Assembly: GCF_904830925.1 (NCBI RefSeq) | Contig: NZ_LR882967.1 | Span: 3,618,106-3,682,105 of the forward strand | Reading direction: 5' to 3' | DNA: 64,000 bases | Source: Planktothrix pseudagardhii | Lineage (GTDB): Bacteria; Cyanobacteriota; Cyanobacteriia; Cyanobacteriales; Microcoleaceae | Part shown: piece by piece, positions 1-46,132 of the stretch | Layout: the number at the start of each line of letters is the position of its first letter | Numbering within the stretch: position 1 is the first letter of the stretch | Position numbers and translations under genes: made by a program | The notes under the pieces: model-generated | What the model was told of the DNA's origin: nothing | The model's input: only the letters and a program-made list of their open reading frames with translations | Databases searched by the model: none

Positions 1-899
1 GTATCCTGATCCGGTTCCTGATTTAAACCTGATAATAGTAAAATAAAGCCCAAAAATGATAAAGGTACAAAAATCAATAATTCGTCTTTGATGTTGAACA
101 AGGTTTGAGCAGGACGATAAATCAACAGACTCAAACTTACAAAAGGCCCAATCACCATTTGACACAGGGGAGTCAAAATTAAGGTCAAAAAATCTAGCTG
201 ATTAATTCTAGCTTCACCCGTGAGCTTGCGCGCCACAAACACTAGAACTAACATAGTAGATAAAATTAATGTATTTCTCAGAATTTCCTTGAGCAAACTT
301 TTATTCCACTGATTTTTAAACAATGGCGCAGTCAGAAAAAGTGGAAACACTGTTTCATAAGAGAATAGAGTGGAAAAAATCAGGAGATAGGATAATATTT
401 TTTGGTTGTTAAAATAGCAGATAAAAGCTAGTAATAAAAAGGTTAAAGATGAATAAAGAGAAATATGGGTTAAATAAGCATGATTTGTATCGGCTGGAAA
501 CAAAGTAAAAGCTAGAGTTCCAGTGATGATAAAAATCGGTTGATTCCAAAGAGACTTTAGAAAGATATAGCACAAAATATTATTAATTAAAATAACTAAA
601 TAATTGATCAAATAAAGAAATTGAAAATCACCGATTAACTGTCCCAAAAATCCAACCGAAAACTCGATTAAATAAAGAAGCGGACGACCTTCTGTAACAT
701 TAAAATTTAGGATATGCCATTTCATGAAATCACCAAATTCGGTGATATCCATGGACATCGGTTGAGCGATCAAAAAATAATCATCTTCATATAAACCGAG
801 ATTTTTATAGTTCCAAAAGTGAGCTATAAACGTAATAATAGCTAGGATAAAAAAAGTTTTTAACCCTTGATTATTAAAAATCCTAGATAGATTACCCAT
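1..899 (-). CDS. Polytopic integral membrane protein, 5'-complete but running off the window start (partial). Candidate GtrC/ArnT-like lipid-linked-sugar glycosyltransferase.
   Basis: Reverse-complement translation from the ATG at 899-897 is open for 299 codons to position 1 with no stop (checked codon by codon). The product is very hydrophobic with many predicted TM helices. It is divergently adjacent to a GtrB-like GT2 gene. The ORF is absent from the supplied track because it has no stop inside the window. Confidence 0.45.
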   Translation of the reverse strand, partial: MGNLSRIFNNQGLKTFFILAIITFIAHFWNYKNLGLYEDDYFLIAQPMSMDITEFGDFMKWHILNFNVTEGRPLLYLIEFSVGFLGQLIGDFQFLYLINYLVILINNILCYIFLKSLWNQPIFIITGTLAFTLFPADTNHAYLTHISLYSSLTFLLLAFICYFNNQKILSYLLIFSTLFSYETVFPLFLTAPLFKNQWNKSLLKEILRNTLILSTMLVLVFVARKLTGEARINQLDFLTLILTPLCQMVIGPFVSLSLLIYRPAQTLFNIKDELLIFVPLSFLGFILLLSGLNQEPDQD

Positions 900-1030
900 T
901 ATTTTTAAAGTGTTTATGTTTAATATTGTTAATCATTATCAGATTCGAGTTTTTTTGTCAATGTGTAAGTCCTATGATATGCTTGATAAAATCAAAGTAC
1001 CTAAAAAGTGTAACCTAATTTTGAACGAAT

Positions 1031-2191
1031 GTGATGATCACGATTGAAGTAATCGCTACTGTGACAAAAGAATCTCAAGTAACCCTTAGTCTTCCCTCTG
1101 AAATTTCTCCAGGAGATCATAAAATGGTACTTACTGTTGATGAAAAATTAATAGCGGAGCCAACAATCCTATCACCCCATGAAACTGAAGAGTTGCTTCA
1201 ATCTTCAATGGAATCCCAGTTAGATGATCTTGAATTGTCTATTGTTATTCCTTGTCACAATGAAGAACCGAATCTTGATCACTTATTTGAGCGGCTCTCT
1301 TCGGTTTTGAATCAGTTAAACATGACCTACGAAATTATCTGTATTGATGATGGCAGTAGTGACCATACCCTTAAATGTTTAATCGATAATCGCTCCCGAA
1401 ATCCAGCTATCAAAATTGTGAGTTTATCGCGGAATTTTGGCAAAGAAATTGCCTTAACCGCAGGACTTGAACACGCACAAGGAAAAGCCATTATCCCCAT
1501 TGATGCTGATCTTCAAGACCCTCCAGAACTGATTGAACAACTGGTGAGTAAGTGGCGCGAAGGCTATGATATTGTTGATGCCAAGCGTCAATTTCGCATT
1601 GATGATAGCTGGCTAAAACGCTTAACAGCCAAAGGATTTTATTATACCATTGCTCAGTTAAGCCCGGTGGATATTCCGGCGAATGTAGGGGATTTTCGCT
1701 TATTAGACCGCCGAGTTGTAGAAGCCTTAAAAAAGATGCCTGAACGCACTCGCTTTATGAAAGGTTTATTTGCTTGGGTGGGTTTCAAACACTGTTCTGT
1801 TCTCTATGACCGACAACCCCGTTATCAAGGACAAACCAAATGGAATTACTGGAAACTCTGGAATTTTGCCTTAGATGGTATTACCTCTTTTAGTGTAATT
1901 CCCCTGAATATTTGGACTTATATTGGGTTTATTTTATCGTTTGTGGCGTTCTTGTATGCGGCCTATTTAATTGTTTTGACAATGATTCAGGGAATTACAG
2001 TACCCGGTTATATCTCCTTAATGGTGGTTGTCCTATTTTTAGGCGGTATTCAGTTAATGGGATTAGGAATAATTGGGGAATATTTGGGAAGAGTTTATGA
2101 GGAAGTTAAACAACGTCCTTTGTATTTAGTCCAAGACTCTCATGGTTTTACCCTGAACTCTCTCAATGTCGAACATAAAAAGGCAATGTAA
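1031..2191 (+). CDS. Family-2 glycosyltransferase, polyprenyl-phosphate sugar transferase type (GtrB/ArnC/DPM1-like) with two C-terminal TM helices.
   Basis: Motifs SIVIPCHNEE and ICIDDGSSD (DXD region) plus a C-terminal hydrophobic pair are typical of bactoprenol-glucose transferases. The 59-residue N-terminal extension is probably not translated. The true start is likely the ATG at 1208 (MESQLDDLELSIVIPC...). Confidence 0.8.
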   Translation: MMITIEVIATVTKESQVTLSLPSEISPGDHKMVLTVDEKLIAEPTILSPHETEELLQSSMESQLDDLELSIVIPCHNEEPNLDHLFERLSSVLNQLNMTYEIICIDDGSSDHTLKCLIDNRSRNPAIKIVSLSRNFGKEIALTAGLEHAQGKAIIPIDADLQDPPELIEQLVSKWREGYDIVDAKRQFRIDDSWLKRLTAKGFYYTIAQLSPVDIPANVGDFRLLDRRVVEALKKMPERTRFMKGLFAWVGFKHCSVLYDRQPRYQGQTKWNYWKLWNFALDGITSFSVIPLNIWTYIGFILSFVAFLYAAYLIVLTMIQGITVPGYISLMVVVLFLGGIQLMGLGIIGEYLGRVYEEVKQRPLYLVQDSHGFTLNSLNVEHKKAM

Positions 2192-2249
2192 TCAGATGCT
2201 ACATTTCTGTAGGATGGTTTTATTGAAGATTAAAAGTCTCTTGTAGGTG

Positions 2250-2702
2250 TCAGGAAATCCCCCTTTCTTCAGAATCAAATAATTCTGCTTGTTGATTATT
2301 CTTGTCCCCTTTAAATACCCAAAAATCATTCATAATATAGTTGAGGACTGCACCAAATAAACCTCCAGCTAATGTATTAATTTTAGGATCAATACTACCA
2401 TAGTCTAAGAGGGGAAATAAAAACACAATTCGAGCAATAACCACACTTCCGGCTGCTAAATGAAACAGAGGAAGTTGCTTCAAGAAAATTTCTTTGAATT
2501 CCCAGTTTCCCTCTGTCCATATCCAAAGACGATACAGAAAAAAACTAAATAAAACCGAGAGTTCAATAGAAATTACATTGGCTAAATTATGAAGCACAGG
2601 AGTATTCCAGCCCCACCTATCAATTAGCAGAAAAATTAAGAGGATATTAAAACAGGTTGTTAAACCTCCCCCAATTATAAATTTAAAAAATTTTTTTGCC
2701 AT
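2250..2702 (-). CDS. GtrA-family small membrane protein (putative lipid-linked sugar flippase)
   Basis: 150 aa with 4 predicted TM helices. The N-terminus FIIGGGLTTCFNILLIFLL matches the GtrA-family signature. It is adjacent to the GtrB-like gene. Confidence 0.7.
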   Translation of the reverse strand: MAKKFFKFIIGGGLTTCFNILLIFLLIDRWGWNTPVLHNLANVISIELSVLFSFFLYRLWIWTEGNWEFKEIFLKQLPLFHLAAGSVVIARIVFLFPLLDYGSIDPKINTLAGGLFGAVLNYIMNDFWVFKGDKNNQQAELFDSEERGIS

Positions 2703-2767
2703 TAGGATTCCAAAATTTTAATGTTAATCTGAGCATTGAACTAATCGGCGTTTTTTCCTCGTATAGT

Positions 2768-4375
2768 TTAAGAATTTTGTTCTGTCGTATAAACCACAAA
2801 ACCGGATAACTCTGGTACTTCAATTCTTCGAGTAAAATCGGGTAAATAATGAAGATAAAATTTGCCAAATTCCCCTCTTAAATCTGCCCAAGCGGGGATA
2901 GCAATTTGGGTAAAATTCTCTGGGAGGTAAGCCATAAACTCCTCTTTACTAATGGGAACTCCAGCTAAATAGCGATCAAAAGGGCCAGAATCAATATGAT
3001 ATAATTGATGCTCTGCCATCAGAACTGAAAAGGGATGCCAAGGAAAATAAACTTGACCCGGATTTTTTTTAGAATATTCATAGACCACTTGATGCACATT
3101 ATTGAAAAAACTAGGGAAGGTTTTATAAATATAAGGAATGGGCAGATTAATATTATAGATTGTTAGGATTATTACTAAAGATAATAACCCGGTTTGGCTG
3201 ATTTTTTGTAAAAGTTCTTGACCGGATTTGGGGGATAAATTTGTGGCTTGTTCTAACAACACTAAATGAGCAACCAAGGTTAAAAAGTAAACGGTATACA
3301 TTCCATTGGCATCTCCTCCAGCTTTGACTCTTCCTAATAAGGATGTAGGAATAAAAAATAAGCTAACAATGACAAATAAAAGCCAAGGATTTTCTTGAAT
3401 CCAAGTTTTTATTTTCTGAATGTCATTGGGGAGAGTCCCTAAAATCCAAAACCCGACTATCATCCCTTGTAAAAGACAATATCCGGCTAATTGCTGGGCT
3501 GCGGATAACAGCATTAATAATTTATCCCAAAACAGCGTAATCGTTTGATTATTTCCATCAAACCAAGGTTGATTCCCTGGAATTGTAATCAGATTAAACA
3601 ATAAAGCTTGGGGATTAAATGCTATTAACAAGACAGCCGAAATAACGACTCCACTCAGGGCTAAACAAGCTAAATACCGCTTGAAAACCTTGAAATCATA
3701 GGCTAAAAATAGATAGACAGGTAAAGAAATCAAAATAGGGGCGGCAATTTGTTTTGTCAATACCGCTAAAACGGCTAGAATTGAACTAATTAATAATTTT
3801 TTTAAGGGGATTTCAGGCTTGTTTTTTTCTTTGTAAAGGATGACGCAAGCTAAGGCTGAAAACCCTAAAGCGGGACAATCAGCACAAATTCTAAACGCAT
3901 CATAGGATAAGGTTCTAATTTGAGTTGTAAAAAAGATAAAAGCAATTAAAGCCAGTATCGATAAATAAAATCCTTTTTTGTTTTTCCAAGTTTCACCGCC
4001 ATATACCCAAATTACGGGGGTAAAAAAATAAACTAAAGACATTAATTTACCTAAAACCAGAGCAACTGTAGGAGAATTAACTAGGCTTGCGGGTAAATAC
4101 GCTAAAGCCAGTAATGGCCCATACATATCACTAATCAGTGGCCCTACAGGATCTTTTGGATAATACAAATTGAATTTATATTTCCAAAAAAATGCCATCA
4201 TTAAACGATCTGCATTCCACTCAGGAATTGATGATGGGTATTGACCGGGTGCAGCAAAGTTATCGAGCAGAAAATGATAGACTAAAAGGACAAGACAAAA
4301 TAATCCTGATAGGATAATCGTAGAGATAATTAATCGATCTTGAAAGAATTTTGTTTGTTTTAAGCTTGAGTCCAT
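2768..4375 (-). CDS. Large polytopic membrane protein, GtrC/ArnT (GT39/GT83)-like glycosyltransferase candidate
   Basis: 535 aa with more than 10 predicted TM helices. It sits directly downstream of gtrA-like on the same strand. The architecture is typical of serotype-specific or ArnT-type transferases that use undecaprenyl-phosphate sugars. Confidence 0.5.
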   Translation of the reverse strand: MDSSLKQTKFFQDRLIISTIILSGLFCLVLLVYHFLLDNFAAPGQYPSSIPEWNADRLMMAFFWKYKFNLYYPKDPVGPLISDMYGPLLALAYLPASLVNSPTVALVLGKLMSLVYFFTPVIWVYGGETWKNKKGFYLSILALIAFIFFTTQIRTLSYDAFRICADCPALGFSALACVILYKEKNKPEIPLKKLLISSILAVLAVLTKQIAAPILISLPVYLFLAYDFKVFKRYLACLALSGVVISAVLLIAFNPQALLFNLITIPGNQPWFDGNNQTITLFWDKLLMLLSAAQQLAGYCLLQGMIVGFWILGTLPNDIQKIKTWIQENPWLLFVIVSLFFIPTSLLGRVKAGGDANGMYTVYFLTLVAHLVLLEQATNLSPKSGQELLQKISQTGLLSLVIILTIYNINLPIPYIYKTFPSFFNNVHQVVYEYSKKNPGQVYFPWHPFSVLMAEHQLYHIDSGPFDRYLAGVPISKEEFMAYLPENFTQIAIPAWADLRGEFGKFYLHYLPDFTRRIEVPELSGFVVYTTEQNS

Positions 4376-4592
4376 AATCCATCAGTGGTTAACACTCATG
4401 TTGCTCATAAATCCTACACGGACTGCTAGATACACGTCAACTGTGATCAGGAATATTGCACTGGAATCTTAAATTAACCTTAAAAGTTAAGTAGATAAAA
4501 TACTCTAAAATTTGATTTTTATCAATGCTTGACGACAACTTGATCCTGTATTAACCTTTGTGTAGGATTGATTCAGGTTAAACTAAAATTCT

Positions 4593-5009
4593 ATGGATAC
4601 GCTGACCAATAAGGAAATTATTGCTGGCTTTTTTGAAATCTATAATAATAAAGATTATGAAGCGGTATATCGGTACTTTTCTCCCCACTATGTTGATCAT
4701 GGATTACCCCAAGTCAAGAGTTTAGAGCAGGTGATCGGCATCTTAAAACTGACTCATAAAAGCTTTCCCGATCTTCAAGTCATCATTAATGATTTGATAG
4801 AAGAAAATAATCAAGTTGTGTTTCGAGGTCGCTTTAGCGGGACACACTTGGGTGAGTTTGCCAATCTGCCTCCGGGTGGTGCAAAAGTCGAATTTGAAGC
4901 GTTAGAAATTTTTAAAATTGAAAATCAAAAGATCACAGAATCTTGGGGATATTGGCCCCTTTCAGAGATTATTAATCAGATAACAGCAGCAGCCAATCAA
5001 AAGCAATAA
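4593..5009 (+). CDS. SnoaL-like / ester-cyclase (NTF2-fold) family protein
   Basis: 138 aa. The N-terminal pattern NKEIIAGFFEIYNNKDYEAV...YFSPHYVDHG is characteristic of the ester cyclase / SnoaL_2 family. Confidence 0.55.
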   Translation: MDTLTNKEIIAGFFEIYNNKDYEAVYRYFSPHYVDHGLPQVKSLEQVIGILKLTHKSFPDLQVIINDLIEENNQVVFRGRFSGTHLGEFANLPPGGAKVEFEALEIFKIENQKITESWGYWPLSEIINQITAAANQKQ

Positions 5010-5593
5010 TCACCTGACTTAAAAATAAACAAGGTTGATATTTATAGACAACTTAATTCATGACCCTAACCGCGTCTTGGTTAAATTCCCAGAAACCGAA
5101 GCTGAAGAAATATCTCCTCTTTAACCATGAACCGACACCAGAATTATTTGCCATTCTCACCGTCTATTTTATCCAGGGGATATTAGGATTAGCACAGTTA
5201 GCTGTCAACTTTTTTCTAAAAGACAATTTGGGGCTGAGTCCATCTCAAATGGCAGCTTTGATGGGAATTGCTGCTGTCCCCTGGATTGTTAAACCATTGT
5301 TTGGATTTCTCTCCGATGGTCTTCCCATTGCCGGGTATCATCGTCGTCCTTATTTGATCGTATCAGGATTATTAGGAACCTTCGCCTGGATTGCCTTAGC
5401 CACCGTTGTTCATGATACCTGGACAGCCACCCTAGCCATCCTCTTAACCTCTGTGTCGGTCGCCATGAGTGATGTGATTATCGATTCCATTGTCGTAGAA
5501 CGTGCCCGCAAAGAATCCTTAATCCAGTCGGGCTCTATGCAATCGTTGATGTGGACGGTTTCAGGAATCGGAGGATTATTGACGGCCTATTTA

Positions 5594-7247
5594 GGGCTTG
5601 CTGAAAAAAGGCGAAAAGCCAGAACAGGCGGGAGGAGAAGACAAGAAAAAATGAATCAGGTGCAAGGGATGGGTGTAAAATAGCGCAAAAACCTGGCAGG
5701 AGTTGGGGAAAATGTACCGTAAAGACGAACAACAGAAAACACCACCCGAAGAGTTCAAACTGCCATTTGAGGGAAAACTCTCAGAAGAGAATCGCTGGGT
5801 AATCATGGCTCAATGGATACCGTGGGAAGAATTTGAAGTGGAATATGCAGAATTATTCTCATCTGTGATGGGAGCACCCGCCAAAACATTTAGAATGGCA
5901 TTAGGAGCCTTAATCATTAAAGAAAAATTAGGGATAAGCGACCGAGAAACAGTAGAACAAATCAAAGAAAATCCCTACTTGCAGTATTTTATCGGGTTGT
6001 CAGAATACAGGAACGAAGCTCCATTTGATGCCTCAATGTTAGTGCACTTTCGGACGAGAATCAATGTAAATTTAGTGAATAAAGTTAATCGGTTAATGGT
6101 CAAAAGAATGCGAGAGGCGAGTTCCGAGCCAGCCTCAGAAAATCAATCAGAAGCTGAAGAGGGAAGTGAGAGGAAAAACCGAGGAAAATTAATAGCTGAT
6201 GCGACTTGTGCACCTGCGGATATCACATATCCAACAGACTTAAAAATTTTAAATAAAGCCAGAGAACAGACAGAAAAAATCATTGATAGTTTGCATAAAA
6301 GTCGTCAGGATAAATCAGAAAAGAAACCAAGAACTTATCGAAAAACAGCCAGAAAAGACTACCTAGAAGTAGCCAAACAACGCCGACCTTCCCGACAAAA
6401 AAGACGAAAAGCAGTTAAAAAACAACTGCAATATATTAAACGAAACTTAGGACATATAGACCAACTCATCGACAATGGAGCAACGCTAGATTGCTTAAAT
6501 AACAAGCAATATAAGAGTTTATTAGTAATATCAGAAGTTTACCGTCAACAGCAATGGATGTATGAGAATAACAAACAGAGCATTTCCGATAGAATCGTCA
6601 GTTTGAGCCAACCTCATATTCGTCCGATTGTGCGAGGTAAAGCCGGAACGTCAGTAGAATTTGGTGCTAAATTGTCTGCGAGTTGTCTGGATGAATATGT
6701 ATTTCTTGACCGGATTAGTTGGGATAATTTTAACGAATCCTGTGATTTAAAAACACAAATAGAGGCTTTTAAAGAATACACGGGGCATTATCCTGAATCA
6801 GTCCATGTAGATAAAATTTACCGGACTAGAGACAACCGAGCTTGGTGTAAAGACAGAGGAATTAGAATCAGTGGCCTCCCATTAGGGAGACCGTCAGCAA
6901 ATCTTAGTAAAGCTACTAAGAAACAGGCGTTAGAGGATGAAAAAATTCGGAATTCCATTGAGGGGAAATTTGGCCAAGGGAAAAGAAGATTTAGCCTGAA
7001 TCGGATTATGAATAAACTAGCTCATACTTCCGAAACAGCAATTGCTATTACTTTTTTAGTCATGAATCTCTCTGTGATTCTTAGACGGATTTTTAGGTCA
7101 ATTTTTTTGTTCAATTACTTTTTTCGAGTTATTGATTACCAGAATTTATCTGTTAACTCCTTATCTCAAAAAAAACTTATTTATCCTTCTGACTCCATTT
7201 GCTAGTTAATCATTCTTTTGCTTTTCTGTTACTTTTTCAGCAAGCCC
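5594..7247 (+). mobile_element. IS element, IS5/IS1182-like, approximately 1654 bp, with 15-bp terminal inverted repeats and a 6-8 bp target-site duplication
   Basis: The left end is GGGCTTGCTGAAAAA at 5594. The right end 7233-7247 is TTTTTCAGCAAGCCC, its exact reverse complement. The flanking direct repeat is (CC)TATTTA at 5586-5593 and 7248-7253. One 500-aa transposase ORF lies inside. Confidence 0.75.
5703..7205 (+). CDS. DDE transposase (IS5/IS1182 superfamily, InsH-like N-terminal domain)
   Basis: 500 aa. The N-terminal segment (...FRMALGALIIKEKLGISDRETVEQIKENPYLQYFIGL...) resembles the IS5 InsH N-domain. LIADATCAPADITYPTDL is the first DDE block. The protein has a K/R-rich middle and a C-terminal catalytic region. 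Confidence 0.75.
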   Translation: MGKMYRKDEQQKTPPEEFKLPFEGKLSEENRWVIMAQWIPWEEFEVEYAELFSSVMGAPAKTFRMALGALIIKEKLGISDRETVEQIKENPYLQYFIGLSEYRNEAPFDASMLVHFRTRINVNLVNKVNRLMVKRMREASSEPASENQSEAEEGSERKNRGKLIADATCAPADITYPTDLKILNKAREQTEKIIDSLHKSRQDKSEKKPRTYRKTARKDYLEVAKQRRPSRQKRRKAVKKQLQYIKRNLGHIDQLIDNGATLDCLNNKQYKSLLVISEVYRQQQWMYENNKQSISDRIVSLSQPHIRPIVRGKAGTSVEFGAKLSASCLDEYVFLDRISWDNFNESCDLKTQIEAFKEYTGHYPESVHVDKIYRTRDNRAWCKDRGIRISGLPLGRPSANLSKATKKQALEDEKIRNSIEGKFGQGKRRFSLNRIMNKLAHTSETAIAITFLVMNLSVILRRIFRSIFLFNYFFRVIDYQNLSVNSLSQKKLIYPSDSIC

Positions 7248-8065
7248 TATTTAAGTGGTTGGTTGCTGGAGAATTTTACCAGCCAGACGGTTTTTGGGAT
7301 TACGGCTTTCTTTCCCTTAATCGTGTCGGGGGTTGCGGGTTTGATTGCGGAAAAATCCGTATCAGACCTCAAACCCCATCGAACTGACCCTAGCAACATC
7401 CACCAAAAAGTAACCTTGCTTTGGAATACCCTGCGCCAAAAATACATCTTGCTTCCTACCCTGTTTATTTGTATCTGGCAAGCAACGCCCAACACGGAAT
7501 CTGCCTTTTTCTATTTCACCACCAATGAGTTAGGCTTTAGCCCAGAATTTCTGGGGCGTGTGCGATTGGTAACCAGCCTTGCAACCTTGCTTGGGATTGG
7601 CATTTATCAACGCTATCTCAAAGCCGTTTCCTTTCGTAAAATCTTGGGTTGGAGTATTGTGCTTTCCTCCCTACTGGGGATGACGACTTTGATCCTGGTC
7701 ACCCATGCTAACCGAGCAATAGGCATTAATGATCACTGGTTTAGTTTGGGCGATAGTGCTGTGCTAACGGTGATGGGTCAGATTGCCTTTATGCCTGTGT
7801 TTGTGATGTCTGCTCGTCTCTGTCCGCCGGGAATTGAGGCTACTCTGTTTGCTTTTTTGTTGTCCGCCTTCGGCTTATCGGGAATGATTGCCTATGAGTT
7901 GGGAGCACTCCTCACCCACTGGTTAGGAATTAGCAATCTAAATTTTGAAAACCTCTGGATTTTGGTCGTTATTGCTAATCTTTCTACTTTGCTTCCCCTG
8001 CCTTTATTGGGATGGTTGCCTAACCAAAATTCTCAACAGGAATCTTGACTAGGTAATTGATAATT

Positions 8066-8722
8066 TTATTCTGAAGCAGCATAACCGTATTTTTCAAACC
8101 AATCTCGATATTTCATCTCGATTTGTTGAACTAAATCTGGATCTAAATAATTCACCCAATAACCATTCCTGCCATCGGTAATATGATTACTATGAAAGAG
8201 GTTAGTTTTGTGGTGAACCTCATCTCTATCTCCTTCACTTTCGTAAGATAAATTATCAATTTCATCAACAATAGCCGACGCATTCACAGAACCCACCGCG
8301 CAAAGTTGAGCTAATTCTTCAATAATACTATTCTTGCCAGTCAAAATTCTGTGGTAAGGGACAACTAAATCTGCCACATTAATCCATTGTTCGTGCATTT
8401 GGATCAGATAATCCGCAAATTCAACCGTCGGGGAATCTCCAAATGCTCTCCAATTACTCGCCATTGCATCTCGAATATCTCGATAGGAATATACGATTAA
8501 TGTAGCTTGATCGGCAATGGATTGAACAAAATCATGGATTTTGATCAGTGTATATTCTTTCTCTGGGATTTTTTTATACTTCCAATCTCCTGACCATCCA
8601 CAAGTTAAATTATTTTTAATGGTAGGCGAACTAGAAAGCACAAGGCGAGTCGCGTTATATAACCAAGTGCTTCCTGATCTCATCATTCCCGAAGCCACAA
8701 TCAACTTTGATTCCATTCCCAT
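8066..8722 (-). CDS. Sulfotransferase-family protein (PAPS-dependent type)
   Basis: 218 aa. The N-terminal P-loop-like 5'-PSB motif SGMMRSGSTWLYN is typical of the sulfotransferase fold. It lies in the glycan-modification neighbourhood. Confidence 0.55.
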   Translation of the reverse strand: MGMESKLIVASGMMRSGSTWLYNATRLVLSSSPTIKNNLTCGWSGDWKYKKIPEKEYTLIKIHDFVQSIADQATLIVYSYRDIRDAMASNWRAFGDSPTVEFADYLIQMHEQWINVADLVVPYHRILTGKNSIIEELAQLCAVGSVNASAIVDEIDNLSYESEGDRDEVHHKTNLFHSNHITDGRNGYWVNYLDPDLVQQIEMKYRDWFEKYGYAASE

Positions 8723-8978
8723 AAATCCTTTTTCTCTGGATGCAAGAATCTAAATCAACGGGCGTAAACTGTCGTCACTCCGTTTCTCAATACGCTTTTC
8801 TTGCTGTTATTGGTCAGTCAATTATACCAAAGTATTGTAACTCTTATTGATCATTTGAGAGGGATCCCAGAAAATGAGCAGGTATTTCATCTTTTGGGAT
8901 ATAATTCGATTCTCTATAAAATGACCCATACCTTGACTTTTGATAAAAAACCGCTAAGATAAATTTTGCCTAAATTTA

Positions 8979-10223
8979 TTGAATAAAGACAGATTTATGA
9001 GAATCCTTTTCGTGATTAACTTGCCTTATAGTAGTTTGGAAATATTAGCAGTAGAAGCCATTAAGGTTGTAGAACCTCAAGGCATTGAAGTTTTATGGGT
9101 TTATATGAATCAATATATCGAAATGATGGATACCTGTCCTGAAATGTTAGAATGTGTGGACTTGGTTCATTTTGTTCTGGATGTTCAATCCTTCTCCTAT
9201 GAACAGATTAAAAAAGCTGCTAATATTCGCCCCATTATTAGTAGCTATCACCATTGGAACTTTAAAGAAATACCCCAACATTTAGAGTTAGTTAGCCACT
9301 TATTTTATGTCGCTAGATTTTTAGAATCAGAGGTACAACAGATCACATCAGGAAAAACAACCACCAGTCTTTTATTGAATGGAGTAGATACAAACGTATT
9401 TTTTCCGATTCTCAATCAAAAGCCGCGTGATCATTTTGTAATTGGTTTTTTCGGAACTCAACGCCCGAATAGTCGAAGCGATCGCAAAGGCAGTAGACTC
9501 TTGTTAGAAGCGGCAAAAATTATGGTTGAGTCGGGATACAAACCCAGTTTTTTAATTATGGGTTATGGATGGAAAAATTTAGTCCCCGTGTTAAGAGATC
9601 TGGGTTGTCCCGTCACCTATAAAGTTAGTGTACCGCGAGAAGATGTGCCGAAATACTATCATCAACTCGATCTTTATTTGATCACCTCACGCATCGAAGG
9701 AGGGCCGTTAACCCTTCTGGAAGCGGGGGCTTGCGGAATTCCTGTTATCTCTACTCCCGTCGGTATTGCTCCAGAACTTTTAACCAAACCGGGCTGTGGT
9801 AAACTGTTGTCTGGATTCGAGAGTCAAGAAATAGCAGAAGCGATCATGGATAATATGGAAAATCCTCATATTGCCCAAGAGAGAGCCCAAGCTTTACTTC
9901 AAGAAATCCGCCAATATTGGACTTGGAAAGATACTTATAAAGACTTAGCTAAAATTTATTTTGATCTCTATCAAAAAACGGCTCAACTCTCACAAATTAA
10001 GTCGTCAATCTCTTCTAAAAATAATATTCCTCCCTACCTGAATTTACAACAGGATGCTGTTGTACAACGAAGCATTGCTAGGAATTATGCTTTATTTTAT
10101 TTTGCCTTCTGTCTATACGATCACGGTGAAAAACTAGCAGCTTTAAGGACAGCCTTACCAATTTTACATCAAATCAAACCGATCTATTTTTGGAAGGAAC
10201 TTCAACGGGAAGAACATTGGTAA
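8979..10223 (+). CDS. Glycosyltransferase family 4 (GT-B fold, GT1/GT4 clan)
   Basis: The EAGACGIPVISTPVG motif is the E-X7-E-containing C-terminal signature of GT4 enzymes. The start may be the internal MRILFVINL. Confidence 0.75.
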   Translation: MNKDRFMRILFVINLPYSSLEILAVEAIKVVEPQGIEVLWVYMNQYIEMMDTCPEMLECVDLVHFVLDVQSFSYEQIKKAANIRPIISSYHHWNFKEIPQHLELVSHLFYVARFLESEVQQITSGKTTTSLLLNGVDTNVFFPILNQKPRDHFVIGFFGTQRPNSRSDRKGSRLLLEAAKIMVESGYKPSFLIMGYGWKNLVPVLRDLGCPVTYKVSVPREDVPKYYHQLDLYLITSRIEGGPLTLLEAGACGIPVISTPVGIAPELLTKPGCGKLLSGFESQEIAEAIMDNMENPHIAQERAQALLQEIRQYWTWKDTYKDLAKIYFDLYQKTAQLSQIKSSISSKNNIPPYLNLQQDAVVQRSIARNYALFYFAFCLYDHGEKLAALRTALPILHQIKPIYFWKELQREEHW

Positions 10224-10300
10224 AACCGTGGGATTTGTAACTACTTTGCTAAATTTTATCCTAATTTTGGATACAACTTAAATAAGATTGCTATATCCAC

Positions 10301-11641
10301 TCAATACTTAACCGTAAAAAGACTCAATAAATAAAGGCTCACGCTTTGCTTTTTCTGAGATAGGATATTCGCTAATGTATACCTGTGCTTTTCTAAGGGA
10401 TTAATTAAAACATGAATGATAATAACTGAAGCTAAAAGACTCAGTAATATACTAATTGTTCCTAACCAAAGAATCGATATTTTAAAATGAGATACTATTA
10501 TTAGCCCAATATAAATTGATATTGTATGGGTCAAATAAATAGGATAGGAGAGATTTCCAATATATCTGTCTATTGAATTGTTAAGAGTTAAATGAAATAA
10601 TAGAGGAATGATTATCATCCAACCTAAATGAGAAATCAAATAAGCATAATTCATATTAGTCAGTTTTCCGATTTGCAAGATCCCTAAGTTTATCAGCCAA
10701 AGAATAAACCAAACGAACCCAAAATATAGAATGTAATATTGATTGCTAATTTGTAAGTTTTCAGGTAGAAAATTTTTTAATTTAATTAACCAGCTTGAAT
10801 ACAACCTAAAGCTAAAAATTCCTAGGGCAAACAATGAAAATGCAAACAGAAAAAAATGATGAAGCCAATTGTTAAATCCCATGTATTGATAGAAAAGAAT
10901 ACGGATTGTTAAAGAGAATAACAAATATAGAAATAGTTTTTTGTTACTGAATTTTACGATGCGTGGAGCTAAAAAATAAAATATTAATTCAATAGCCATT
11001 GACCAGGCAACAGGGTCAAGTAAATATTCAACCAGAGGATACTGAGTCTCGAAAATATTAGGACTAATACCGAATGATGAAGGTAAATCATAGTTTAAAA
11101 CAATAAACCAGTTCTGAAATAAAATGATTAAATTAGAAAAAGTTGCAAAACTTATTAATAATACATTAACTATACTATTGTCTGAAAAGGAAAAATTGAC
11201 AAATGGCTCTAATTCTAACCATTCTCCCCACACAATACCGAATATTAAACTAACGGTTATAATCAGGCTACCAATTAACCAATAGGGAATAAAAATCCGC
11301 AAAAATCTGCTCCAATAAAATTCGACTACATTAGAATATTTAGGTAAAATCATTGCCATATAAAAACCCGAAATCATAAAAAATATTTCTACGGCTTCAG
11401 CACCATCAAGCATAACCCACGGAAATACAAGATGGGATTGATTTTCTAAACCATTAGGATTAATATCCAATGATACATGAGCAGCTACAACGCATAACGC
11501 TAAATACAACCTTAATATTCCCATATTGACTGATCCTGAGAGAATTTTGTCTGGTTTAATCTTGATGCTATCATCTATAATATGATATATTAAGGTTACT
11601 GTAAAACAGTAAGCAATCTTGAAAAGCCAATGGAAAATCAA
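10301..11641 (-). CDS. Acyltransferase family 3 (OafA/YrhL-like) integral membrane O-acyltransferase
   Basis: 446 aa with approximately 10 predicted TM helices. The N-terminal MGILRLYLALCVVAAHV with a conserved His is typical of acyltransferase_3. Confidence 0.7.
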   Translation of the reverse strand: MIFHWLFKIAYCFTVTLIYHIIDDSIKIKPDKILSGSVNMGILRLYLALCVVAAHVSLDINPNGLENQSHLVFPWVMLDGAEAVEIFFMISGFYMAMILPKYSNVVEFYWSRFLRIFIPYWLIGSLIITVSLIFGIVWGEWLELEPFVNFSFSDNSIVNVLLISFATFSNLIILFQNWFIVLNYDLPSSFGISPNIFETQYPLVEYLLDPVAWSMAIELIFYFLAPRIVKFSNKKLFLYLLFSLTIRILFYQYMGFNNWLHHFFLFAFSLFALGIFSFRLYSSWLIKLKNFLPENLQISNQYYILYFGFVWFILWLINLGILQIGKLTNMNYAYLISHLGWMIIIPLLFHLTLNNSIDRYIGNLSYPIYLTHTISIYIGLIIVSHFKISILWLGTISILLSLLASVIIIHVLINPLEKHRYTLANILSQKKQSVSLYLLSLFTVKY

Positions 11642-13453
11642 CCTTTAAAATCTAGTTTTGTCTTAACTTTAAAGTTTATTTGGCGTTACTGTTCTGAATA
11701 TCGCTATGCTATTTTATTGTTGCTGTTTTTGATGACAGTTCAGACAATTTTACAAGCGTTAGTTCCGGTTTTGACGGGGAAGTTAGTTAATAGTTTTAGT
11801 TATTCCATAGAGACATGGACAGTACCCGTCTTTATTTGTGCGTATCTAGGTGCAGCTAAACTTACTTCTTATCTTTGCCGAATTGGTGCGGCTGCGGTGC
11901 TAAGTAATACGGCGACACAAGTGATGAAGAAAATTATCACTGAATCTTTTGATAAAGTCCAACATTTCAGTACAGAATGGCATATTGATAATTTTTCTGG
12001 GAGTGTGATTAGAAATATTAACCGAGGAATTTGGGGATTTGACCAGTTAAGTAATACCTTATCGATGTCAGTTTATCCCAGCCTCTTGATGATGGTTTCT
12101 TTAATTGTTATTTTTTTTATTAATGGTTTTTGGATTGGAGTAACTGGATTTGTAGGTTTCGGATTATTCTTGTTGGTCACTTATAATTTATCAACTCATT
12201 ATTTAGCTCAAGGTTTTGAAGAATTTAATCAAATAGATACGGATCTCAATGGTAGTTTATCGGATGTTGTTATCTGTAACAGTGTGGTTAAGTTTTTTGC
12301 TACCGAAGATTATGAAAGCCAAAAATTTGAAGAAATAGCAGAAACCTGGCGAGATAAAAGTCAACGAGTGTGGTGGCGAATTGAAACGGCTTTTTCAGCC
12401 CAAAATCTTTTACTTTGGGTGATGGAAGTGGTCATTATTGGTCTTTCCATTTGGTTATGGTTTAAAGGCATTCGCACCCCTGGGGATGTGATTACTATTC
12501 TCACCAGTTTTCAGATGGCGCAAGGTCAAATGACCACCGTTGGAAATGATCTTCGCTTGCTACAAAAATCCATGATTGATCTTCAAGGATTGATCAATTT
12601 GGATGAAGTCGATGCCCAAATTGTAGACAGTCCAGAAGCCGTTGCGTTAGAAATTAAGGACGGATCAATTGCGTTTGATCAGGTGACATTTCGGTATAAA
12701 AATCAAACCACACCCATCTATGAAAATTTGTCTGTCACCATTGCTGGGGGTGAAAAAGTGGCTTTGGTGGGACATTCAGGAAGTGGCAAAAGTACCTTTA
12801 TGAAATTACTTCAGCGCCTCTACGATATCGAAAATGGTCAGATCACCATTGATGGTCAGAATATTCAAAATATAACCAAGCAAAGTTTACGGTCTGCGAT
12901 CGCCGTTGTGCCCCAAGAGCCCATTCTATTCCATCGCTCGATTGCGGAAAATATTGGTTATGGTAAACCGGATGCGACACAAGATGAAATTGAACAAGCC
13001 GCCCGCCAAGCTTATGCTCATGACTTTATTATGGGCCTACCGGAGGGTTATGAAACCCAAGTGGGTGAGCGGGGAACTAAACTTTCCGGGGGTGAGCGCC
13101 AACGAATTGCGATCGCTCGCGCCATTTTGATCAATTCCCCTATTCTGATTCTGGATGAAGCCACCAGTAGTTTAGATTCTGTTTCCGAAATTCTGATTCA
13201 AAAAGCACTTAATAATCTGATGGCGGGGCGCACAACAATTATTATTGCCCATAGACTTTCTACGATCCAAGCCGTTGACCGTATTTTAGTTTTTTCTCAG
13301 GGTAAGATTATTGAGGAAGGAAGCCAAGAAACTTTATTAGCTAATTCTAATAGCCATTATCGCGTCCTCTATGCTTTACAATCTAATGGTTTTCTGCCAG
13401 AAACACCCGAAGATTCTAATAGCAAAGTTGAGCAACAAGTATTAGTACAATAA
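11630..13453 (+). CDS. ABC transporter, fused permease/ATP-binding exporter (MsbA/type-I exporter-like)
   Basis: Six N-terminal TM helices. Walker A GHSGSGKST, ABC signature LSGGERQRIAIARA and Walker B ILDEATSSLD are present. Confidence 0.85.
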   Translation: MENQPLKSSFVLTLKFIWRYCSEYRYAILLLLFLMTVQTILQALVPVLTGKLVNSFSYSIETWTVPVFICAYLGAAKLTSYLCRIGAAAVLSNTATQVMKKIITESFDKVQHFSTEWHIDNFSGSVIRNINRGIWGFDQLSNTLSMSVYPSLLMMVSLIVIFFINGFWIGVTGFVGFGLFLLVTYNLSTHYLAQGFEEFNQIDTDLNGSLSDVVICNSVVKFFATEDYESQKFEEIAETWRDKSQRVWWRIETAFSAQNLLLWVMEVVIIGLSIWLWFKGIRTPGDVITILTSFQMAQGQMTTVGNDLRLLQKSMIDLQGLINLDEVDAQIVDSPEAVALEIKDGSIAFDQVTFRYKNQTTPIYENLSVTIAGGEKVALVGHSGSGKSTFMKLLQRLYDIENGQITIDGQNIQNITKQSLRSAIAVVPQEPILFHRSIAENIGYGKPDATQDEIEQAARQAYAHDFIMGLPEGYETQVGERGTKLSGGERQRIAIARAILINSPILILDEATSSLDSVSEILIQKALNNLMAGRTTIIIAHRLSTIQAVDRILVFSQGKIIEEGSQETLLANSNSHYRVLYALQSNGFLPETPEDSNSKVEQQVLVQ

Positions 13454-14431: not shown

Positions 14432-15622
14432 TAAGCTGTTAAGCATCTAAATAGGGTATAATGAAAAACCAAGTTTAGAAAAATCAATCAAAAGATGCCT
14501 GCTAAAAATCATTTAAATGAAAAGCAAGTAGAGAAACTACAGAAAAGATTGAAAGAGGAAGAAAATGGACAAATCCGAGAAAGAATCTTGATTTTATTAT
14601 TGCTAAATGATGGTAAAAAGCAAAGTGAAATTGCCAAGTTTTTGGGCTGCTCATTAAACAAAGTATGTTATTGGTGTGTACATGGAGACCCTGACAAATT
14701 AGAAAGCCTAAAAGATGAAAGAATGAAAGGAAATTATAGAAAAGCCACAGACAAATATATAGAGATATTATTAGAAACAGTAGAAAAAGAACCGGAAGAA
14801 TTAGGATATGAATTTGGGAGATGGACAGGAGAAAGATTGGCAACTTATTTAGAACAAATCACAGGAATCAAATTAAGTAGTTCACAAGTGAGAAAGATAT
14901 TAAAGGAAAAAAAGTATGTTTATTTGTGGGCAAAGTATAGCTTAGAAGAGAAAAGAGATCCAGAAAAAAGAAAATTATTTAAAGATAAAATAGAAGAATA
15001 TTTGAAAATAGCAAAAGAAAGTCCAGAACAATTACAGGTATGGTTTTGGGATGAAAGTGGATTTAATTTAAGAGTGATAAAAAGAAAGAATTGGTGTAAA
15101 AAAGGGAAGAGGAAACAGATTAGAGGAGACAGGAGGAAAGGAAGAGTTAATGTGATGGGAGGATTGAGGTACTCGGATAAAAAAAGATTTGTAGAATTTC
15201 TGGATAAAGGAAATGCAGATAATTTTTATCAAGTGTTAAAAAGTTTTTATCAAGAGCTAATTTATGAATGGGTATTAGCGGGAAATCAAGCAGAAGAATT
15301 TGTAGAAAAAGGAGCTAAGATCCTGATTATTCTTGACAATGCAAGTTTTCACAAAAAAGAAGAGTACCTAGAAAAAATTAAAGCAGAAATGCCGAATGTC
15401 TATTTAGAATTTCTTCCAGCATATAGTCCAGATTATAATTTAATTGAATTAGTCTGGCATTCAGCTAAAGAATATATAGCTCATCGACTCTTTAAATCAG
15501 TTGATGAGCTAGAGTGTTTATTACATCAGCTTTTAAATGAAGGACAGTTATCTATTAAATGGGGACGTAAACTTAAAAACAAAGGTAATGCTATAATCAC
15601 AGTTTAAATACACAACAGCTTA
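14432..15622 (+). mobile_element. IS630-family (Tc1/mariner superfamily) insertion sequence, copy 1, approximately 1191 bp including flanking TA
   Basis: Sequence identity with the second copy at 35693-36883 starts at TAAGCTGTTAAGC and ends at ...ACACAACAGCTTA. The ends are imperfect inverted repeats (TAAGCTGTT / AACAGCTTA) flanked by TA, the classical IS630 target duplication. Confidence 0.8.
14495..15607 (+). CDS. IS630-family transposase (HTH + DDE/D)
   Basis: 370 aa with an N-terminal helix-turn-helix. The catalytic region contains WFWDESGF, ILDNASFH and YSPDYNLIE, which together resemble an IS630/Tc1 DD(34)E arrangement. It is identical to ORF 35756..36868. Confidence 0.85.
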   Translation: MPAKNHLNEKQVEKLQKRLKEEENGQIRERILILLLLNDGKKQSEIAKFLGCSLNKVCYWCVHGDPDKLESLKDERMKGNYRKATDKYIEILLETVEKEPEELGYEFGRWTGERLATYLEQITGIKLSSSQVRKILKEKKYVYLWAKYSLEEKRDPEKRKLFKDKIEEYLKIAKESPEQLQVWFWDESGFNLRVIKRKNWCKKGKRKQIRGDRRKGRVNVMGGLRYSDKKRFVEFLDKGNADNFYQVLKSFYQELIYEWVLAGNQAEEFVEKGAKILIILDNASFHKKEEYLEKIKAEMPNVYLEFLPAYSPDYNLIELVWHSAKEYIAHRLFKSVDELECLLHQLLNEGQLSIKWGRKLKNKGNAIITV

Positions 15623-35692: not shown

Positions 35693-36883
35693 TAAGCTGT
35701 TAAGCATCTAAATAGGGTATAATGAAAAACCAAGTTTAGAAAAATCAATCAAAAGATGCCTGCTAAAAATCATTTAAATGAAAAGCAAGTAGAGAAACTA
35801 CAGAAAAGATTGAAAGAGGAAGAAAATGGACAAATCCGAGAAAGAATCTTGATTTTATTATTGCTAAATGATGGTAAAAAGCAAAGTGAAATTGCCAAGT
35901 TTTTGGGCTGCTCATTAAACAAAGTATGTTATTGGTGTGTACATGGAGACCCTGACAAATTAGAAAGCCTAAAAGATGAAAGAATGAAAGGAAATTATAG
36001 AAAAGCCACAGACAAATATATAGAGATATTATTAGAAACAGTAGAAAAAGAACCGGAAGAATTAGGATATGAATTTGGGAGATGGACAGGAGAAAGATTG
36101 GCAACTTATTTAGAACAAATCACAGGAATCAAATTAAGTAGTTCACAAGTGAGAAAGATATTAAAGGAAAAAAAGTATGTTTATTTGTGGGCAAAGTATA
36201 GCTTAGAAGAGAAAAGAGATCCAGAAAAAAGAAAATTATTTAAAGATAAAATAGAAGAATATTTGAAAATAGCAAAAGAAAGTCCAGAACAATTACAGGT
36301 ATGGTTTTGGGATGAAAGTGGATTTAATTTAAGAGTGATAAAAAGAAAGAATTGGTGTAAAAAAGGGAAGAGGAAACAGATTAGAGGAGACAGGAGGAAA
36401 GGAAGAGTTAATGTGATGGGAGGATTGAGGTACTCGGATAAAAAAAGATTTGTAGAATTTCTGGATAAAGGAAATGCAGATAATTTTTATCAAGTGTTAA
36501 AAAGTTTTTATCAAGAGCTAATTTATGAATGGGTATTAGCGGGAAATCAAGCAGAAGAATTTGTAGAAAAAGGAGCTAAGATCCTGATTATTCTTGACAA
36601 TGCAAGTTTTCACAAAAAAGAAGAGTACCTAGAAAAAATTAAAGCAGAAATGCCGAATGTCTATTTAGAATTTCTTCCAGCATATAGTCCAGATTATAAT
36701 TTAATTGAATTAGTCTGGCATTCAGCTAAAGAATATATAGCTCATCGACTCTTTAAATCAGTTGATGAGCTAGAGTGTTTATTACATCAGCTTTTAAATG
36801 AAGGACAGTTATCTATTAAATGGGGACGTAAACTTAAAAACAAAGGTAATGCTATAATCACAGTTTAAATACACAACAGCTTA
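35693..36883 (+). mobile_element. IS630-family insertion sequence, copy 2, identical to copy 1 and in the same orientation
   Basis: 35693-36883 matches 14432-15622 base for base across the compared sequence and carries the same TA-flanked imperfect inverted repeats. The flanking sequences differ on both sides. Confidence 0.8.
35756..36868 (+). CDS. IS630-family transposase (identical to 14495..15607)
   Basis: The 370-aa translation is identical to copy 1. Confidence 0.85.
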   Translation: MPAKNHLNEKQVEKLQKRLKEEENGQIRERILILLLLNDGKKQSEIAKFLGCSLNKVCYWCVHGDPDKLESLKDERMKGNYRKATDKYIEILLETVEKEPEELGYEFGRWTGERLATYLEQITGIKLSSSQVRKILKEKKYVYLWAKYSLEEKRDPEKRKLFKDKIEEYLKIAKESPEQLQVWFWDESGFNLRVIKRKNWCKKGKRKQIRGDRRKGRVNVMGGLRYSDKKRFVEFLDKGNADNFYQVLKSFYQELIYEWVLAGNQAEEFVEKGAKILIILDNASFHKKEEYLEKIKAEMPNVYLEFLPAYSPDYNLIELVWHSAKEYIAHRLFKSVDELECLLHQLLNEGQLSIKWGRKLKNKGNAIITV

Positions 36884-45210: not shown

Positions 45211-45891
45211 TTAGCCTGTAATTGCACTAGATAAAGCAATTACCCCAATCGCTACAACAGCAAAACCTGAATATTTGATCAGGGAATATTTGCTAGTTTC
45301 TAAGGTTTGTTGGAAGGATTGAGCGAGTTTCATCGTCGCTCCCGCTATTCCCAATTGAATCAAAGTAAATCCTGCCAAATAGGAGATTAAAGGCATCATT
45401 CCTGCCCCCATAATTGATTCTCCATAGGCATAGCCATGAAATAAACCCGCTACGCTTGCTAAACTGATTAATACGGCTAGGGGTAATTGTTTTTTCAGCA
45501 CTAATAAAATGCCAATGGTAATCACCGATAGGGCGATCGCCACTTCAGGAACCGGCAAATTAAAACTCATTAAATGGATTGCTGTCCCTAACATAGCAGC
45601 CCCTAGAAACCCGACAATTATCCAAATTCCACCCACAATACTAGCTGCAATTAAACCAATGGAAAGAATAAAGGCAAAGTGATCAATTCCAATGATGGGA
45701 TGAGCGAGTCCTGATAAAAATCCTTCAAAAAAATTCTTCGGAATTCGACCGCCAAAGGCATGATGGGCTGTGGCAGGTTGCGCCATCAACAGTAATAATA
45801 AACTGATGCCTAAAAAAAAGACTCGATTATTATTTTGTAGCGAGAAATCCTGACAAAAACGCTGAAATGATTTGAACATCATAAACATCAT
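45211..45891 (-). CDS. HupE/UreJ-family metal (Ni/Co) transporter
   Basis: 226 aa. Signal/TM segment, then the His-rich motif TAHHAFGG and GIDHFAFIL. There are six predicted TM helices. Confidence 0.7.
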   Translation of the reverse strand: MMFMMFKSFQRFCQDFSLQNNNRVFFLGISLLLLLMAQPATAHHAFGGRIPKNFFEGFLSGLAHPIIGIDHFAFILSIGLIAASIVGGIWIIVGFLGAAMLGTAIHLMSFNLPVPEVAIALSVITIGILLVLKKQLPLAVLISLASVAGLFHGYAYGESIMGAGMMPLISYLAGFTLIQLGIAGATMKLAQSFQQTLETSKYSLIKYSGFAVVAIGVIALSSAITG

Positions 45892-46132
45892 CTGTACCGC
45901 GCAGATGTGTGAAAGAATAATCTGATTTCGGTGGGTATTCTGACTTAGAGATCAAGACTCTCATCACAGTTGCGGGACAGTGTTGGATTTGCGCCAAACT
46001 TTCCCCTTACTTCTAGCGACTGTTCCCCGCTAGAACCGACTCAGATCCTTGACTGTATCATAGGATTACATTTTAGTCAAAAATTTCTCCCAGTATTTAA
46101 CTAGGAGAAATCTCAGAGATCCATTCAAAAAA

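Follow-up and report, generated by a model that had tools for sequence, protein, structure and literature searches.

Probable recent insertion of an ISMae6-like IS5-family element into a folate/biopterin transporter gene of lineage-3 Planktothrix

Among the closest described systems is ISMae6 of Microcystis aeruginosa NIES-843, an insertion sequence (IS) of the IS5 family that measures 1686 bp and is present in 8 copies (PMC2779907). Within Planktothrix, the catalogue of Entfellner et al. (2022) assigns to the two lineage-3 strains, No713 and PCC 9214, a type named 'group 18: IS5, transposase ISMae6', with a transposase gene of 1494 nt and 1-10 full copies plus 3 fragments in lineage 3; in the same study No713 carried 273 IS copies, the highest number among the strains studied (PMC9366434). 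Inactivation of Planktothrix genes by insertion sequences has precedents: PMC9366434 cites ISPlag1 and ISPlr1 as elements that inactivate mcy (microcystin) genes. On the side of the target, the folate/biopterin transporter (FBT) family contains the folate carriers Synechocystis slr0642 and Arabidopsis At2g32040 (Klaus et al. 2005, as reported in PMC1971073). The present work concerns a 64,000-nt stretch of DNA of Planktothrix pseudagardhii (contig NZ_LR882967.1, positions 3,618,106-3,682,105 of the forward strand; by protein identity, strain No713), referred to as the window, in which an ISMae6-like IS5-family element separates the two parts of an FBT-family gene of the major facilitator superfamily (MFS). 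A recent insertion of this element into the transporter gene is the reading adopted here, with a probability of about 0.94.

The window IS shares its overall plan with ISMae6-family elements. A megablast search against plasmids returns a match annotated by PGAP as 'IS5-like element ISMae6 family transposase' on the M. aeruginosa plasmid NZ_CP025929.1, where the element measures 1682 bp, carries the end GGGTTTGCTGAATAA and is bordered by TAATTA on both flanks. Both elements contain a single open reading frame (ORF) encoding DUF772 and DDE_Tnp_1_2 within about 1.65-1.69 kb, their ends are near-identical (GGGTTTGCTGAATAA in the ISMae6-family element versus GGGCTTGCTGAAAAA in the window), and each is enclosed by a 6-bp TANNTA duplication, but the two agree at a level of 70% protein identity for the transposase and about 74% DNA identity. 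By ISfinder convention, copies of the same IS share roughly at least 95% protein or about at least 90% DNA identity. An assignment to ISMae6 itself was rejected on these values, and the window IS is classed as a separate IS inside the ISMae6-like group rather than as an ISMae6 isoform.

The transposase gene of the window IS has exactly the length of the group 18 gene; the published catalogue counts copies, whereas IS ends and a target-site rule are not part of it. The interrupted gene falls in the same family as slr0642 and At2g32040, with TIGR00788 and PF03092 matches well over their cutoffs, a likeness that does not imply orthology to slr0642; folate transport is known for those two proteins as reported, whereas the 442-aa Planktothrix protein is a predicted carrier by family. 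The mcy cases, as far as they are described in the citing paper, are likewise natural IS knock-outs of a dispensable gene in the same genus, but they involve the IS families IS701 and ISAs1 and another target gene, and their phenotype is demonstrated, whereas the FBT case is known from sequence. The IS type is already catalogued in a published, very IS-rich genome, and the text and supplements of PMC9366434 that were covered mention neither folate/biopterin nor this gene disruption. The insertion itself is ordinary and amounts to an annotation correction, with no new biology.

Boundaries of the element and its transposase

The window IS is delimited by terminal inverted repeats that are perfect over 15 nt and by a target-site duplication, TATTTA, that is perfect over 6 bp (Table 1). 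Within the 64-kb window, GGGCTTGCTGAAAAA occurs with zero mismatches at 2 sites, both of them IS ends, and a scan allowing up to 3 mismatches returns these two exact ends together with one unrelated 3-mismatch site. Between 5400 and 7450, the IS ends also form the sole 100%-complementary inverted pair of at least 15 nt. This pair reaches 17 nt once the flanking TA is counted; 17-nt ends with TA as part of the IS were nevertheless rejected, because the empty site would then leave no direct repeat. Similarly, an apparent 8-bp repeat, CCTATTTA, arises because the CC directly before the left TATTTA happens to match the CC with which the IS ends, and an 8-bp duplication was rejected since the right-hand CC belongs to the IS and relatives show 6 bp.

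The first-pass annotation of this DNA had described an IS with 15-bp perfect terminal inverted repeats, a 6-8 bp direct repeat and an uninterrupted 500-aa transposase within the range 5586-7253. The call of an IS is borne out by the inverted ends, by the duplicated target and by an IS5-family transposase that is intact, and the 15-bp repeats are found exactly as described, whereas the direct repeat stands at 6 bp and not at 8. The range encloses the IS but is composed of CC, the left duplication, the IS and the right duplication, the IS proper spanning 5594-7247.

The transposase frame is indeed open for 500 codons from TTG 5703, with an alternative start at ATG 5712 that yields 497 aa. Because the homologues all begin with MYRK, corresponding to ATG 5712, and because GGAG sits 9 nt upstream of this codon, the real product is most likely the 497-aa protein, so that the earlier figure of 500 holds for the open frame but not for the likely product. 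A Pfam scan identifies DUF772 and DDE_Tnp_1_2, and the NCBIfam model NF033578 (transpos_IS5_1, an IS5-family equivalog) is matched with 480 bits (cutoff 275) over profile positions 3-418 of 419; against the ISNCY and IS1182 models the transposase scores far under their cutoffs. In a 16-sequence transposase alignment reaching down to 50% identity, D163, D367, E417 and K424/R425 are invariant, and the window protein keeps all invariant columns; from the family motif, these positions are the putative catalytic residues.

The nearest transposase relatives occur in Planktothrix, are also 497 aa long and share 89-93% identity. The closest retrievable DNA copy, located in P. tepida (L002:1383-3036), is 1654 bp long and aligns gap-free over its full length with 92.3% identity. 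Moreover, ends of the form GGG(C/G/T)TTGCTGAA(A/T)AA recur in related loci of many cyanobacteria as well as in the ISMae6-family element. Together, the profile score above its cutoff, the shared inverted ends, the duplication relative to the empty site and the DDE and basic residues place the window element in the IS5 family.

Table 1. Coordinates of the inserted element and of the gene that it divides (window positions).
Feature	Position	Strand	Length	Basis
Insertion sequence, ISMae6-like IS5-family member, single ORF	5594-7247	+	1654 bp	Ends, duplication, profile match, relatives
Left terminal inverted repeat, GGGCTTGCTGAAAAA	5594-5608	+		Same end in dozens of related elements
Right terminal inverted repeat, + strand letters TTTTTCAGCAAGCCC	7233-7247	-		Exact reverse complement of left end
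Left target-site duplication TATTTA, codons Tyr177-Leu178	5588-5593	.		Single TATTTA at empty site
Right target-site duplication TATTTA	7248-7253	.		Single TATTTA at empty site
Transposase gene, 497 aa + stop	5712-7205	+	1494 nt	Pfam DUF772 + DDE_Tnp_1_2, NF033578, homologues
5' part of folate/biopterin transporter (FBT/BT1) gene, codons 1-178	5060-5593	+		Equal to P. tepida WP_072719368.1 residues 1-178
3' part of FBT gene, codons 179-442 + stop	7254-8048	+		Rejoined ORF, alignment

The divided transporter gene and its intact allele

Deletion of 5594-7253 joins the two gene parts into a 1329-nt ORF of 442 codons with no internal stop, which reads ...GGLLTAYL/SGWLLENF... across the junction (slash). 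The rejoined protein matches Pfam BT1 (PF03092) with 450.9 bits (E = 5e-135, residues 39-436) and TIGR00788 with 409.8 bits (cutoff 216.4) over residues 8-436, both in one stretch. In an alignment to 11 cyanobacterial FBT proteins the junction is gap-free, and A176, Y177, S179 and G180 around it are invariant. Exact in-frame rejoining at TAYL/SGWLLENF had been proposed by the first-pass annotation, to be abandoned if the joined protein failed to align continuously with its family; the in silico joining gives a stop-free frame, and the alignment runs on over the junction with both profiles and the 11 homologues. Profile scores above their cutoffs in one stretch, with neither gap nor frame shift at the junction, identify the rejoined gene as an FBT-family member. 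No second FBT paralogue was found in the 64-kb window.

In its divided state, the 5' ORF extends over 5060-5683 and comprises the 178 native residues followed by 29 IS-encoded, very basic ones, while the only start codon available to the 3' part is a TTG located in the IS end. The protein is broken between residues 178 and 179, inside the conserved hydrophobic stretch GGLLTAYLSGWLL and outside the central hydrophilic loop (~210-240).

At its C-terminus, the lineage-3 FBT protein, in the window as in P. tepida, stops at residue 442 (window 8020-8066), and the tail of ~45 aa (…EHH.PGS…PEL.PEF…) carried by most other cyanobacterial homologues is missing from it. A convergent sulfotransferase-like gene ends just 17 nt downstream of the FBT gene.

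The neighbouring gene for a 138-aa SnoaL-like protein (4593-5009) led to P. tepida PCC 9214 (LR882970.1, assembly GCA_904830955), in which the corresponding locus (L001) has the same gene order as the window and an uninterrupted BT1 gene of 442 aa. Window positions 1-5593 align to this locus with 99.07% identity and positions 7246-12669 with 99.93%. On the P. tepida side, 8 nt are shared by both alignments, and the site reads GACGGCC-TATTTA-AGTGG with one TATTTA (L001:6982-7031). Between the rejoined gene and the P. tepida allele there are 5 nucleotide differences, all synonymous, and the proteins are 100% identical. An exact look-up of the 442-aa sequence returns WP_072719368.1 / CUR32653.1, 'folate/biopterin family MFS transporter [Planktothrix tepida]', and the suggestion made earlier that other strains be checked for an intact gene is thereby answered by PCC 9214. 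Because every outgroup homologue examined is uninterrupted too, the insertion is read from these comparisons as the derived state.

This relationship was masked in the public record. The first homology search gave a top FBT match of just 76% identity, which was misleading because the identical P. tepida protein is hidden in a 90% cluster represented by a 276-aa fragment. That fragment, CAD5958917.1 ('Folate-biopterin transporter [Planktothrix pseudagardhii]'), equals the window ORF 7218-8045; its start codon, TTG 7218, is part of the IS end, and its first 9-10 residues (MLFCYFFSKP) derive from the right end of the IS. The deposited 'Folate-biopterin transporter' is an IS-truncated fragment with an IS-derived start that is annotated like a gene.

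Mismatches between the window and P. tepida are distributed unevenly, with 52 to the left of the IS (1-5593) and 4 to the right (7246-12669). On the left they cluster at about 2030-2250, 3140-3300, 3640-3690, 4630-4780 and 5230-5300, and the SnoaL-like gene holds 9, all synonymous. This patchy pattern suggests recombination between strains that carry different species names although their sequences agree by >99% in this region.

Target-site choice, timing and competing accounts

The choice of the insertion site was compared with that of related elements at 80 loci from species-representative genomes, among which both ends could be located for 52 elements. Perfect 6-bp duplications flank 32 of these 52, and 7 more show one mismatch. 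All 32 perfect duplications begin with T and A at positions 1 and 2, and 31/32 have T and A at positions 5 and 6; counted over all 52 elements, TANNTA stands at the left flank in 47 and at the right flank in 44. In the window as a whole TANNTA has a density of ~4/kb. The FBT gene, 1329 nt long, contains a single TANNTA, at nucleotide 529, and it is there that the IS was inserted. Because TANNTA dominates the flanks and the single TANNTA of the FBT gene holds the IS, the choice of this site is the normal behaviour of the transposase of the ISMae6-like clade. The duplications are most often TAATTA or TACTTA and extend from Planktothrix to Nostoc, Crocosphaera and Microcystis, plus a Compostibacillus (Bacillota) genome. 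A TANNTA target motif for a prokaryotic IS was not found in the searchable literature, ISfinder lying outside that search, and the 6-bp rule offers a practical descriptor for annotating ISMae6-like elements.

General knowledge of DDE transposases supplies a probable course of events. The transposase would cut a TANNTA target (TATTTA in the FBT gene) with a 6-bp stagger and join both IS ends to the cuts, and repair of the gaps after joining would duplicate the 6 bp; the symmetric TA...TA pattern would fit a dimer that cuts in this way. The outcome is a gene divided into a 5' part of 178 codons, which stops 29 codons into the IS, and a 3' part of 264 codons that lacks a promoter and a start codon of its own. 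The strict TANNTA rule would render hits of this kind predictable, the FBT gene offering exactly one site.

A young age relative to the split between No713 and PCC 9214, with no absolute age attached, is supported by the perfect ends and duplication, by halves that show no further lesion or amino-acid change, and by multiple identical transposase copies in P. pseudagardhii records, so that the earlier wording 'very recent' holds in the relative sense only. The same identical copies indicate that the window IS may be active in transposition. An older origin would require the insertion to be ancestral to both lineage-3 strains, the intact P. tepida gene having been restored by precise excision of the IS with one copy of the duplication. 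The two states differ exactly by the IS plus 6 bp, as expected from an insertion or a perfect excision alike, but none of the 11 other cyanobacterial orthologues in the alignment shows an interruption or a gap at the junction. Moreover, an old pseudogene should hold non-synonymous or frameshift changes, and none are present, the identical transposase copies point to recent activity, and DDE-type IS elements seldom excise precisely. With the outgroups intact and no decay in the halves, such a restoration is extremely unlikely. As a multi-copy repeat, the IS might also have been misplaced during assembly; a misplaced repeat would not, however, yield a perfect 6-bp host duplication that obeys the TANNTA rule of the clade, both junctions are precise at the level of single bases, and, according to PMC9366434, PacBio long reads directly gave the complete No713 chromosome. 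Because the duplication obeys this rule, a misassembly can be set aside for practical purposes, its probability being close to nil.

The recent insertion also has to be set against the idea that the divided transporter still works, its halves being made separately, the 3' half through read-through from the transposase gene and TTG 7218, and then assembling like some split MFS proteins. The in-frame 276-codon ORF that begins inside the right end of the IS and is publicly annotated as a protein is compatible with this idea, as is the common strand of the IS and the FBT gene; TTG 7218 sits 13 nt after the transposase stop. The position of the break in a conserved hydrophobic segment instead of the central loop speaks against it, as do the foreign and highly basic tail of the 5' product and the lack of an evident Shine-Dalgarno sequence upstream of 7218 on reading the sequence. 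In addition, a promoter/terminator scan of 4900-8150 against shuffled sequence finds 5 promoter-like sites near the 3' half where 6.6 are expected, which is not above chance. Since the break falls in a conserved hydrophobic helix, a working split transporter is very unlikely. Loss of transporter function is likely in view of the break position, the basic 5' tail, the missing start and promoter signals of the 3' part and the single FBT gene in the window.

Several points weigh against a recent, inactivating insertion. The best retrievable DNA match to a donor IS is only 92% identical, and the copy number of the exact IS is indirect, coming from protein accessions and the table in PMC9366434. 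Furthermore, the recency argument from all-synonymous differences rests on 5 substitutions and is statistically weak, and these five changes could predate the insertion. The likely loss of function, stated as a knock-out in the first-pass annotation, is itself deduced from a split in a conserved, probably membrane-spanning segment.

Cyanobacteria are folate prototrophs that make their own folate (PMC1971073), and loss of the FBT carrier would for this reason plausibly be tolerated. That the disruption was selected rather than being neutral load, either because a harmful folate or pterin analogue could no longer enter through this carrier or because a costly redundant carrier was shed, seems decidedly improbable. 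The locus presents what appears to be a clean, fully reconstructible natural knock-out of an FBT-family carrier, with small importance beyond annotation. The disrupted allele and the intact allele of P. tepida PCC 9214 form a near-isogenic pair and thereby a natural contrast for the role of FBT carriers in a folate-prototrophic cyanobacterium.

Further copies and other features of the window

The window transposase is identical to WP_254173932.1, 'IS5 family transposase [Planktothrix pseudagardhii]', which is listed under two CAD accessions. In addition, CAD5950471.1 and CAD5950426.1 correspond to residues 1-248 and 249-497 of the window transposase with zero differences. Because these two proteins match the two transposase halves exactly, the deposited records indicate that P. 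pseudagardhii holds at least one further copy of this exact IS, itself interrupted. The C-terminal half (CAD5950426.1) carries 24 foreign N-terminal residues. Metagenome scans with a 21-mer composed of flank and duplication and with an IS-specific 44-mer gave no match, and exact look-ups of the transposase (in both its 497-aa and 500-aa forms), the 207-aa 5' product, WP_254173932.1 and CAD5958917.1 returned no recorded contig.

Related elements elsewhere in the genus show rearranged and shortened forms. In P. tepida, L002:1-3036 (within LR882970.1, 2052892-2057385) contains two related IS copies head to tail, the upstream one having its last 45-46 nt, including the right end, inverted (L002:1338-1382) and abutting the left end of the complete copy; L002:1338-1382 is a rearranged IS-IS junction. 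In P. paucivesiculata PCC 9631, three loci (L063, L064 and L065) carry an identically shortened related IS with 87% protein identity, and in L064 and L065 both inverted ends are located, 1232 bp apart. These copies look like a multiplied non-autonomous deletion derivative.

The window also contains two 100%-identical IS630-family elements of 1191 bp (14432-15622 and 35693-36883), in direct orientation and 21 kb apart. Each copy encodes a 370-aa transposase (DDE_3 + HTH_33) in a 1113-nt gene, and the pair corresponds to 'IS group 17' of PMC9366434, a group with 57 copies in one lineage-3 strain. Finally, a cobalamin riboswitch (RF00174) lies on the minus strand at 45913-46054, with 53 bits against a gathering threshold of 31.5, directly upstream of the minus-strand ORF 45211-45891.

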